Assembly (NCBI RefSeq): GCF_003790525.1
Contig: NZ_CP033635.1
DNA: 64,000 nt
From: Escherichia coli
GTDB lineage: Bacteria > Pseudomonadota > Gammaproteobacteria > Enterobacterales > Enterobacteriaceae
Reading direction: 5' to 3' (one strand)
Part shown: positions 31,847-59,003 of the stretch, piece by piece
Layout: each line of letters starts with the position of its first letter
How positions within the stretch are numbered: the first letter of the stretch is position 1
Made by a program: the position numbers and the translations under genes
Notes under the pieces: generated by a model
What the model saw: the letters and a program-made list of their open reading frames with translations, nothing else
Databases searched by the model: none
What the model was told of the DNA's origin: nothing

Positions 31847-31857
31847 AGAGAGAAGAT

Positions 31858-31880
31858 GTGCCGGATAGTTTATCCGGCAC
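31858..31880. terminator. Perfect 10-bp hairpin between convergent yadS and erpA
   Basis: GTGCCGGATA-GTT-TATCCGGCAC; no clear U tract on either side. Confidence 0.35.
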
Positions 31881-31892
31881 ATGAACAGCAGA

Positions 31893-41326: not shown

Positions 41327-41433
41327 GAAACGCTGGCGGGTTCGCAAGCGGTACGCAATCTGAGCGTTCCTGAAGGGTTAATAAACAACCAGATGAAAAG
41401 AAAGGGTTAATACTTTAGGTGGGATGTTATTTT

Positions 41434-41458
41434 ACCGGATGGCTACTCGCCATCCGGT
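41434..41458. repeat. Perfect 10-bp inverted repeat between the mrcB stop and the fhuA promoter
   Basis: ACCGGATGGC-TACTC-GCCATCCGGT; flanked by A/T runs in the wrong orientation for a minus-strand intrinsic terminator. Confidence 0.35.
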
Positions 41459-41474
41459 ATGTCACGCTTAGACG

Positions 41475-49510: not shown

Positions 49511-50908
49511 ATTTTTACCCGAGTCGCTAATTTTTGCCGCAAGGTGCTAAGCCGCGAGGAAAGCGAGGCTGAACAGGCAGTCGCCCGTCCACAGGTGACG
49601 GTGATCCCGCGTGAGCAGCATGCTATTTCCCGCAAAGATATCAGTGAAAATGCCCTGAAGGTAATGTACAGGCTCAATAAAGCGGGATACGAAGCCTGGC
49701 TGGTTGGCGGCGGCGTGCGCGACCTGTTACTTGGCAAAAAGCCGAAAGATTTTGACGTGACCACCAACGCCACGCCAGAGCAGGTGCGCAAACTGTTCCG
49801 TAACTGCCGCCTGGTGGGTCGCCGTTTCCGTCTGGCTCATGTGATGTTTGGCCCGGAGATTATCGAAGTTGCGACCTTCCGTGGACATCACGAAGGTAAC
49901 GTCAGCGATCGCACGACCTCCCAACGCGGGCAAAACGGTATGTTGCTGCGCGACAACATTTTCGGCTCCATCGAAGAAGACGCCCAGCGCCGCGATTTCA
50001 CTATCAACAGCCTGTATTACAGCGTGGCAGATTTTACCGTCCGTGATTACGTTGGCGGCATGAAGGATCTGAAAGACGGCGTTATCCGTCTGATTGGTAA
50101 CCCGGAAACGCGCTACCGTGAAGATCCGGTACGGATGCTTCGCGCGGTTCGTTTTGCCGCCAAATTGGGCATGCGCATCAGCCCGGAAACTGCCGAGCCG
50201 ATCCCACGCCTGGCAACCTTACTGAACGATATCCCACCGGCACGTCTGTTTGAAGAATCGCTGAAACTGTTGCAAGCGGGCTACGGTTACGAAACTTATA
50301 AGCTGCTGTGTGAATATCATCTGTTCCAGCCGCTGTTTCCGACCATTACCCGCTACTTCACGGAAAATGGCGACAGCCCGATGGAGCGGATCATTGAACA
50401 GGTGCTGAAGAATACCGATACGCGTATCCATAACGATATGCGCGTGAACCCGGCGTTCCTGTTTGCCGCCATGTTCTGGTACCCATTGCTGGAGACGGCA
50501 CAGAAGATCGCCCAGGAAAGCGGCCTGACCTATCACGACGCTTTCGCACTGGCGATGAACGACGTGCTGGACGAAGCCTGCCGTTCACTGGCGATCCCGA
50601 AACGTCTGACTACGCTAACTCGCGATATCTGGCAGTTGCAGTTGCGTATGTCCCGTCGTCAGGGAAAACGCGCATGGAAACTGCTGGAGCATCCTAAGTT
50701 CCGTGCGGCATACGACCTGTTGGCCTTACGAGCCGAAGTTGAGCGTAACGCTGAACTGCAACGTCTGGTGAAATGGTGGGGTGAGTTCCAGGTTTCCGCG
50801 CCGCCAGACCAAAAAGGGATGCTTAACGAACTGGATGAAGAACCGTCACCGCGTCGTCGTACTCGTCGTCCACGCAAACGCGCACCGCGTCGTGAGGGTA
50901 CCGCATGA
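49511..50908 (+). CDS. pcnB: Poly(A) polymerase I
   Basis: ORF track begins at TTG 49490; the established PcnB N-terminus ([19 protein letters not shown]...) starts at an AUU codon, here ATT at 49511, giving 465 aa. Start assignment rests on published knowledge, not sequence alone. Confidence 0.85.
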
Positions 50909-51384
50909 CAGTGGCGTATATTGCCATAGGCAGCAATCTGGCCTCTCCGCTGGAGCAGGTCAATGCTGCTCTGAAAGCATTAGGCGATATTCCAGAAAGC
51001 CGCATTCTTGCTGTTTCTTCGTTTTACCGCACCCCACCGCTGGGGCCGCAAGATCAACCCGATTACTTAAATGCAGCCGTCGCGCTGGAAACCACTCTTG
51101 CCCCTGAAGAGCTACTCAATCACACACAACGTATCGAATTGCAGCAAGGTCGCGTCCGTAAAGCTGAACGCTGGGGACCGCGCACGCTGGATCTCGACAT
51201 CATGCTGTTTGGTAATGAAGTAATAAATACCGAACGTCTGACCGTTCCGCACTACGATATGAAAAATCGTGGCTTTATGCTGTGGCCACTGTTTGAAATT
51301 GCGCCGGAGTTAGTGTTTCCTGATGGGGAGACGTTGCGTCAAATCTTACATACAAGAGCATTTGAAAAATTAAGCAAATGGTAA
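50905..51384 (+). CDS. folK: 2-amino-4-hydroxy-6-hydroxymethyldihydropteridine pyrophosphokinase
   Basis: 159-aa [62 protein letters not shown]..., recognised as FolK; overlaps pcnB stop by 4 nt. Confidence 0.93.
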
Positions 51385-51544
51385 TTTATTTATATTACGA
51401 ATATAAATATTTTCTGAAAATCACACCGACTCTCTTTCCTTAATAACGATTTTAGTTTAAAAATTTTTTATAGAAACATAATATAAATTCCCGCTGAGAA
51501 ATATCAATCCCATCGCCATACCCTAACTAATTGCACTTGTGAAC

Positions 51545-51579
51545 TTAAATTTACTTAATCTTGAATTAAGTAAATTTAA
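51545..51579. repeat. Perfect 15-bp inverted repeat in the AT-rich folK / yadN intergenic region
   Basis: TTAAATTTACTTAAT-CTTGA-ATTAAGTAAATTTAA, about 175 nt upstream of the yadN start. Confidence 0.45.
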
Positions 51580-51754
51580 TTTGTTCAAAAGCTTCTAAAG
51601 TGCACAATAGGCAACCTAATGAACAATGGTTGTAAATTTTGGTAACAAACATCATTGCTCATTAATATCTAACATTTGTTTCTTATATTCGTGTCATGAA
51701 TAGTTACTCTTCAAACATGTAGTCTGACTAATGGAATTTTATTCAAGGATTTTT

Positions 51755-52339
51755 ATGTCTAAAAAATTAGGTTTTGCCCTGTCTGGTCTTATGCTGGCAA
51801 TGGTTGCAGGTAATGCTTCTGCTGCACTGGACGGTGGCCAATTAAATATCAGTGGTCTGGTAGTTGATAACACCTGTGAAACCCGTGTTGATGGTGGCAA
51901 CAAAGATGGCCTGGTGCTTCTGCAAACTGCAACTGTTGCTGAAATCAGTGCTGGCGTACTGAATGACACCGTAGGTGCTAAAGCTAAACCTTTCAGCATC
52001 ACCGTTGACTGCAGCAATGCAAACCCGAATCCTGGTAGCACCGCAAAAATGACCTTCGGTTCCGTGTTCTTTGGCAACAGCAAAGGGACTCTGAACAACG
52101 ATATGTCTATTAACACGCCTTCTGACGGCGTAAATATTGCCCTGCACAATATTGATGGTTCCACTATCAAACAGGTTCAAATTAACAACCCAGGCGATAT
52201 TTACACAAAAACGCTGGACGCTACGACTAAATCTGCAACCTATGATTTTAAAGCATCCTATGTCCGTGCTGAAGCAAGCCAGGCACCAACTGCTGGTTAT
52301 GTTAAAACCAACACTGCATATACCATTACTTACCAGTAA
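51755..52339 (+). CDS. yadN: Fimbrial major subunit (Yad fimbriae)
   Basis: Second ATG of the ORF ([23 protein letters not shown] signal peptide) preceded by AAGGA; fimbrin-like with conserved Cys and C-terminal Y-x-I-T-Y-Q. Confidence 0.8.
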
Positions 52340-58972: not shown

Positions 58973-59003
58973 TATCGCACCGCCAGACAACGGCGGTGCG
59001 ATA
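58973..59003. repeat. Perfect 12-bp GC-rich inverted repeat downstream of yadC
   Basis: TATCGCACCGCC-AGACAAC-GGCGGTGCGATA 7 nt after the yadC stop; no U tract on either strand. Confidence 0.4.

Follow-up and report, generated by a model that had tools for sequence, protein, structure and literature searches.

In the 64-kb window (the whole stretch of DNA that was analysed), pcnB, folK (50905-51384), yadN and the genes for a chaperone and an usher follow one another on the plus strand, with a 370-bp spacer between folK and yadN. This folK-yadN intergenic region (51385-51754, plus strand) has a G+C content of 27%, houses the palindrome that is the subject of this work and is a catalogued H-NS-bound 'promoter island' (PMC3661553). 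A 371-bp query covering it gave a 100% match to NC_010498.1 (E. coli SMS-3-5). The gene that follows, yadN (51755-52339, plus strand), encodes the major subunit of the Yad chaperone-usher fimbriae, as indicated by the RefSeq annotation of SMS-3-5, by translation and alignment and by PF00419 homologues. The yad cluster has a low G+C content. An in-frame ATG at 51731, 24 nt upstream of the annotated yadN start at 51755, opens a 202-aa ORF, and the block around this ATG (ATGGAAT...CAAGGATTTTTATG) is among the best-conserved parts of the spacer.

The most conserved block of the spacer lies at 51387-51420, directly after the folK stop codon (TGAATATAAATAwwTTCyGAAAA). Across 18 alleles, 16 of 20 columns are invariant, and the block is found in E. 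fergusonii too. It is near-palindromic (GAATATAAATATATTC, with 7 of 8 pairs in the allele family II described below), and in family I it contains a perfect AT-only 10-bp inverted repeat, TATTTATATT-ACG-AATATAAATA, followed by TTTTC. From its sequence, this block could be the 3' end of folK or a separate site. A 20-nt inverted repeat pair of 80% identity (51387-51406 and 51683-51702, with 276 bp between) decays in K-12 and was judged to be a chance occurrence. A coding function was also discarded for the palindrome region, which is overlapped only by chance ORFs of 20-29 aa.

The palindrome, to which no strand is assigned, is composed of a left arm, TTAAATTTACTTAAT (51545-51559), a spacer or loop CTTGA (51560-51564), which varies among alleles, and a right arm, ATTAAGTAAATTTAA (51565-51579), each arm being the exact complement of the other. 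The first-pass annotation had described perfect 15-bp arms with a 5-bp spacer about 175 nt upstream of yadN; its letters and coordinates are exact, and the distance from the end of the right arm to the annotated ATG is 175 nt. The 15-bp stem does not contain any G-C pair. In both RNA and DNA folds, the outer flank GAAC (51541-51544) pairs with GTTC (51583-51586) over a 3-nt bulge (TTT), which brings the stem to about 20 bp, while a relaxed extension gives 18-nt arms at 94% identity (51542-51582). The same annotation had considered the arms too long to be due to chance, and the shuffling results agree. When the intergenic region (370 bp, 27% G+C) was shuffled 5000 times with dinucleotides preserved, arms of 15 bp never appeared, the maximum being 12, and the analytic expectation for such a repeat in this region is about 8e-5. 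When the whole window was shuffled (n = 30), arm length was at most 11. This is also the longest perfect inverted repeat with a spacer of at most 12 in the 64-kb window, the runner-up having arms of 12 bp. The inverted repeat is therefore non-random.

Other long perfect inverted repeats were observed at 58973-59003, 31856-31882 and 41433-41459 of the window. They have arms of 11-12 bp, are rich in G+C (for instance ATGTGCCGGATA-GTT-TATCCGGCACAT) and look like ordinary intergenic hairpins. The one at 58973-59003 sits at the distal end of the yad cluster, where the G+C content climbs back.

According to the literature, and at region-level resolution, the palindrome region is in H-NS-bound, silenced DNA. 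yadN is bound by H-NS and raised in an hns mutant (PMC8894471 supplement), and a Pyad-lux fusion of about 200 bp from strain CFT073 was more than 100-fold de-repressed in an hns mutant and induced by serum (PMC13245861). The CFT073 H-NS ChIP paper makes no mention of yad. The forward primer of the Pyad-lux fusion is given in S3 Table of its report (PMC13245861), and the fragment starts with CTTAATTTTTTAAAGTTAATTTTAC, 14 nt upstream of the family II palindrome. This start places the palindrome at the 5' edge of a fragment with a working promoter, and that promoter at or downstream of the palindrome. The assignment of the palindrome to the yadN regulatory region, made earlier from the window alone, is thus borne out, as it lies inside or at the edge of an active reporter fragment.

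A candidate promoter follows the palindrome on the plus strand. Its putative -35 element, TTGTTC (51581-51586), is weak and abuts the right arm, and its putative -10 element is CACAAT (51603-51608; CAAAAT in families II and IV). This sigma-70-like match (7/12, spacer of 16) keeps its alignment column in 17 of 18 alleles drawn from three families, and by eye the match in E. fergusonii is comparable. A TGCAcAAT block is conserved in every family and in E. fergusonii. If this predicted promoter is real, the palindrome would span from about -70 to -36 relative to it. The region is crowded with promoter-like sites. The best sigma-70-like match of the spacer is on the minus strand (51478-51507, TTGATA-16-TATATT, 10/12), antisense to folK, and its -35 region is deleted in family II alleles.

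The gene yadN is present in 4643 of 5426 complete E. coli genomes. The perfect palindrome, on the other hand, occurs in about 163 of the 5426 (about 3%), that is, in about 163 of roughly 4600 yadN-positive genomes. Since 163 genomes carry the SMS-type palindrome and 162 the SMS-type yadN allele, the perfect form marks one haplotype, in which a 49-nt element is exact in 107 genomes and bears one mismatch (e.g. a spacer variant) in the other 56. The SMS type is part of family I (about 3006 genomes), which also includes the K-12 type (about 1267 genomes; 13 of 15 pairs, the left arm being TTATTTTTACTTAAT) and the BL21 type (about 1576 genomes), with 12 of 15 pairs and one pair altered on both members to G.A. 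Family II (561 genomes) includes B2 strains such as CFT073, Nissle and E2348/69. At the homologous position it has TTAATTTTACTAA-N9-TTAGTAAAATTAA, in which 13-bp perfect arms are made from different bases; these arms reach 16 bp in E2348/69, PG20180057 and 2012C-4502, while in CFT073 the 13 pairs are followed by a mismatch and then two further pairs. In family III (about 1075-1233 genomes), the dyad is reduced to ACTTAA-N7-TTAAGT or CTTAA-N7-TTAAG, and a fourth allele, family IV (loci L032 and L033), retains TACTTAA-N7-TTAAGTA, so that the perfect dyad core of both families is only 5-7 bp. The spacer has the states CTTGA, ATTGA and TTTGA, and TTTTCATAT, TTTTTATGT and CTTTTATTT in family II, while the arms stay fixed.

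Outside E. coli, the loci of E. fergusonii, E. albertii and Pseudocitrobacter were recovered by protein search and contig look-up; a strict peptide-pattern search for yadN relatives, with one genome per species, had returned the E. coli representative only. E. fergusonii, whose YadN is 90% identical, has the same synteny and a family III-like block, TTTTAATTAAAGATGATTTAAGTGGAT, which is barely palindromic, with a dyad core of 5-7 bp at most; the otherwise invariant C-G pair is disrupted there. In E. albertii and Pseudocitrobacter corydidari, a fimbrial operon likewise follows folK in synteny, but the intergenic region is unrelated and contains no inverted repeat of at least 7 bp. The first-pass annotation had named lack of conservation in strains that retain the operon as a refutation, and by this measure its reading is not supported as stated: the perfect form is rare, and most strains keep the operon without it. 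Compensatory changes, which it had proposed to check, are present.

Within E. coli, the alleles of the folK-yadN spacer and of yadN (51385-52339; loci L001-L033) form no fewer than four families that diverge deeply from one another. The DNA identity of yadN among families is 75-100%, the spacers agree at about 36% of columns (three family consensuses), and the divergence between families starts at the folK stop codon. This pattern suggests that the yad alleles are old and may have been maintained by recombination or diversifying selection. The split into families parallels the strain-specific conditions reported for Yad induction, namely ambient temperature and anaerobiosis in K-12, 41 °C in an avian strain, acid in O157 and serum in ExPEC (PMC7098969, PMC13245861). 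A stretch of 10 bp, or one helical turn, that directly follows the right arm in families I and II is missing from family III and E. fergusonii, which brings the dyad core one turn nearer to the conserved TGCACAAT block. CTTAAT hexamers, recalling the PmrA half-site, cluster in families I, III and IV. The assembly of L029 (GCA_043359715.1), in which folK lies beside a family II yad promoter, has this gene split into calls of 94 aa and 60 aa, which suggests a frameshift or a sequencing error in this essential folate gene.

The substitutions between alleles were then considered pair by pair. Across 14 distinct alleles, 82.9% of the cells of the 15-pair register are paired, and sliding the partner columns lowers this to 54% or less. 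At pair 5/31, family II has T-A and the SMS type A-T, the remaining family I alleles (K-12 and BL21 types) having the intermediate T.T. At pair 12/24, families I and III have T-A and family II has A-T. Beyond its 13-bp arms, family II has a flank pair that is G.A in CFT073, G-C in E2348/69 and PG20180057 and T-A in 2012C-4502, so that this mismatch has been mended from either side. Altogether, three pairs have been altered on both sides between or within families, and three single substitutions restore a pair (T-to-A in SMS, A-to-C in E2348/69 and G-to-T in 2012C-4502). The A at 51549 (arm position 5) is specific to the SMS haplotype and complements 51575; with families II and III as outgroups, parsimony indicates that it is probably a derived, pair-restoring change. 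A C-to-T change on either side of the flank gives G.T in the BL21-type, OkiPb and JNE alleles. The in-register mismatches consist of six G.T (G.U on the plus strand) and one A.C, a strand bias that is not significant (p about 0.12).

Constraint on the arms differs among families. In family II, 2 of 32 arm positions are variable versus 25% of the background (P = 0.008); both 13-bp arms are unchanged in five variants down to 81% overall identity, although the spacer varies, and the arms are invariant save for the covarying flank pair. In family III, the homologous segment has 3 of 30 variable positions versus 38% (P = 0.0007), and the homologue of the right arm is the second-longest invariant run in the family. 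In family I, which includes SMS-3-5, arm constraint was not detected (4 of 30 versus 18%, P = 0.33). Between families, conservation of the palindrome segment is moderate (9-12 of 20 columns versus 7 expected from the 36% mean) and lower than that of the post-folK block and the ribosome-binding region. Taken together, the data from families II and III and the persistence of the block in E. fergusonii point to a moderate, sequence-level constraint on the arm block. At the same time, the commonest alleles keep mismatches (13/15 pairs in K-12, 12/15 in BL21), which means that the dyad is dispensable or weakly selected.

What has been kept is complementarity rather than base identity. This is the signature of intrastrand pairing, whether in RNA, in single-stranded DNA or in a cruciform, but equally that of templated correction of a quasi-palindrome by replication strand switching. 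An RNA role would require a plus-strand hairpin, either in the 3' tail of the pcnB-folK transcript, which it might stabilise or insulate leakily from the silent yad operon, or in a long leader of yadN transcribed from an upstream promoter. The hairpin is stable in SMS (-15.4 kcal/mol, z -6.1), in K-12 (-11.7) and in family II (about -12), and in family I its stem is followed by UUUGUUC. When G.U pairs are allowed, as most register mismatches are of this kind on the plus strand, families III and IV retain 8-9 pairs, and a -10-like hexamer is present upstream, at about 51477, in all three families. However, the wobble bias does not reach significance, the U-rich tail is missing in families II and III, and the hairpins of the BL21 type (-4.9 kcal/mol) and family III (-4.8) are no better than those of shuffled sequences. 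That mismatched forms are common and their hairpins weak argues against strong selection for pairing. A known RNA family was rejected, as Rfam 15 returned only noise (best E of at least 1.9, far under the gathering scores, to eukaryotic or plastid families). The resemblance to a Rho-independent terminator, a stem-loop downstream of folK with TTTGTT after it in family I, is offset by a stem devoid of G-C pairs, a T-tract that other families do not conserve and a terminator scan that found none, and this candidate was discarded as well. The Term-seq, Rend-seq and hns-mutant supplements searched gave no positions for start sites or 3' ends of folK or yadN. Finally, the CFT073 promoter, being at or downstream of the palindrome, places no hairpin in the leader, which weakens the earlier idea of a structured yadN leader; an RNA function is accordingly regarded as improbable. 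Recognition of both half-sites by a specific dimeric regulator of the helix-turn-helix type, activating or repressing yadN, fits several features. The dyad adjoins the candidate promoter, the core ACTTAA-N5-7-TTAAGT is retained in families I, III and IV, and the half-sites of CTTAA-N7-TTAAG, with centres about 12 bp apart, are spaced by about one helical turn. CTTAA/TTAAG pentamers also cluster, with five in 40 bp in family IV (P = 0.0003) and three in 40 bp in families I and III (P about 0.03). Several inputs act on yadN, namely serum, SlyA overproduction, BolA and anaerobic induction, in which ArcA has been implicated in K-12 (PMC13245861). Nevertheless, none of the regulators considered fits: PyadN was unbound by LmiA in published EMSA and ChIP, the LeuO SELEX column is blank for yadN, the BolA motif contains G+C and is unlike the palindrome, the TTA-N6-TAA motif of SlyA was not visible on inspection, and no link between BasR/PmrA and yadN was found in the literature. 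Compared by eye with consensus sequences, the region gave only weak or non-conserved matches for SlyA, FNR, CRP, ArcA, NarL and Fur, and nothing conserved across allele families for these or for Lrp, IHF, Fis, TyrR and ArgR. Furthermore, family II alters the half-sites symmetrically (CTTAAT to CTAATT and ATTAAG to ATTTAG) and lengthens the spacer from 5 to 9 nt, which a fixed protein should not tolerate, and in the BL21 type (about 1576 genomes) the same position of both half-sites is mutated to different bases. A protein site would be expected to keep base identity, and here complementarity is kept instead; a dimeric operator is thus considered unlikely.

The palindromic form and the low G+C content of the yad cluster could also point to the remnant of a mobile or recombination element, such as an invertible switch, a transposon end, a miniature repeat or a recombinase site, and IS5 and IS1 insertions with deletions do occur in the intergenic region of some strains. 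These insertions sit 20-100 bp from the palindrome, however, and the element occupies a single locus per genome in 3006 genomes (E of at most 10), the second 'place' being its opposite-strand self-match. In 2945 of 2970 matching genomes, one place covers at least 80% of the 371-bp query, in a single piece among the matches listed. A REP, BIME, ERIC or MITE repeat, of which many copies would be expected, was rejected because the element is single-copy. As had been stated from the sequence of the window, no recombinase gene is adjacent: in SMS-3-5 as in K-12, the palindrome is surrounded by pcnB, folK, yadN and the genes for the chaperone and the usher, without any transposase. The palindrome resembles the fimS switch in having inverted repeats upstream of a fimbrial major subunit gene, but its arms are 5 bp apart instead of flanking about 300 bp, only folK and yad structural genes surround it and no inverted arrangement was seen. 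Yad has moreover been described as 'not phase-variable' (PMC13245861), and the earlier dismissal of a fim-type switch is upheld. The folK-fimbrial synteny extends to E. fergusonii, E. albertii and Pseudocitrobacter, the last two without the palindrome. A mobile or recombination origin is effectively refuted. Much more weight should be given to a neutral history, even if it too appears somewhat unlikely, in which a functionless quasi-palindrome perpetuates itself, being perfected by template switching during replication and degraded by point mutation. Template-switch hotspots at quasi-palindromes of E. coli are well documented from the work of Ripley and of the Lovett laboratory. The yadN repeat is likewise imperfect in most alleles, with a short loop, arms of 13-18 bp and DNA hairpins of -9 to -13.4 kcal/mol, and its alleles have gained complementarity through three restoring substitutions and two pairs changed on both sides. 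Unlike the lacZ and thyA reporter hotspots, it is known from comparative evidence only and belongs to regulatory DNA whose sequence is to some degree constrained. Intermediates with mismatches are frequent and evidently tolerated (K-12 type, about 1267 genomes; BL21 type, about 1576; CFT073 type with its G.A flank), and the pair-restoring single substitutions of SMS, E2348/69 and 2012C-4502 arose at least three times independently. A rough, uncomputed estimate puts pair-restoring changes at only a few percent of random substitutions in such a stem; three of about ten arm changes would then represent a strong enrichment. The hairpins are stable as single-stranded DNA in SMS (-13.2/-13.4 kcal/mol) and E2348/69 (-11.7), and the arms of family I are free of detectable constraint. 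On the other side, the arms of families II and III are significantly less variable than the background, the block persists in E. fergusonii though barely palindromic there, and its adjacency to a positionally conserved promoter-like site and to the edge of a functional fragment is suggestive of function.

Independent IS5 and IS1 insertions were observed in the folK-proximal spacer of L006 (strain 1506) and L022 (strain PSJ-12). Both are accompanied by a deletion that reaches panB and removes the yad operon largely or completely.

Three known AT-rich elements can be compared with the palindrome. With high-affinity H-NS nucleation sites, such as that of the proU regulatory element, it shares an AT-only sequence with TpA steps in a region that H-NS binds and silences. 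The 10-bp nucleation motif is reportedly tCGATAAATT (Lang et al. 2007; Bouffartigues et al. 2007), and each arm contains TAAGTAAATT, which agrees with it at 7 of the 10 positions; the palindrome has no TCGA part, though, and dyad symmetry is not needed by H-NS sites. The MlrA box, AAAATTGTACA-N12-TGTACAATTTT, an activator site that precedes csgD at a distance, is also a long AT-rich dyad ahead of a weak, H-NS-affected adhesin promoter, but the yadN sequence is unrelated to it and half-site identity is lost between allele families. Lastly, the cruciform-forming repeat of ColE1 described by Lilley has 13-bp arms and a 5-nt loop. Similar arm and loop sizes and the AT-rich context of the yadN repeat would suit extrusion in supercoiled DNA in vitro, although most yadN alleles are too imperfect for extrusion.

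We tentatively favour, with somewhat less than even confidence, the view that the palindrome works at the level of DNA, as an upstream element of the yadN promoter that H-NS silences, and that its perfect symmetry is the haplotype-specific outcome of a complementarity-restoring change. On this view, an old AT-rich quasi-palindrome, usually imperfect, takes its perfect form in the SMS-3-5 haplotype. In functional terms, the segment, bordering the silenced promoter on its upstream side, would be an upstream promoter element or an architectural one, might serve as a docking or nucleation platform for H-NS, for an H-NS-counteracting factor or for both, and may add A/T tracts resembling an UP element. 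Since H-NS binding needs no dyad, this reading by itself leaves the palindromic form unexplained. A single T-to-A change in one haplotype would have restored a pair and produced the perfect 15-bp symmetry, the symmetry itself not being required; the most economical origin would be template-switch correction of the quasi-palindrome or weak selection for pairing. Changes akin to this T-to-A recur in other lineages, and the perfect symmetry would be a by-product of complementarity-restoring, probably templated, mutation.

A supercoiling-sensitive switch is a very unlikely variant, in which rising negative supercoiling would make the AT-only arms of 15-20 bp extrude as a cruciform, or as a hairpin in the course of transcription or replication, and so alter H-NS filament nucleation or polymerase access at the neighbouring promoter. 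If it were true, Yad expression would be coupled to temperature, oxygen or osmolarity, and the perfect 15-16 bp arms of the SMS, E2348/69 and 2012C-4502 types would represent selected extrusion, with strain-specific set-points.

Should the element be neutral, the finding would be ordinary. Whatever its function, the locus provides, in its intermediate and 'repaired' alleles, a natural series in which the evolution of quasi-palindromes can be studied. Yad fimbriae occur widely in E. coli and, according to recent work, help the bacteria in bloodstream infection; the sole established control of their expression is H-NS silencing (PMC13245861). For mutagenesis and protein pull-down experiments, the obvious first target is the conserved dyad segment that borders the active promoter fragment on its upstream side.
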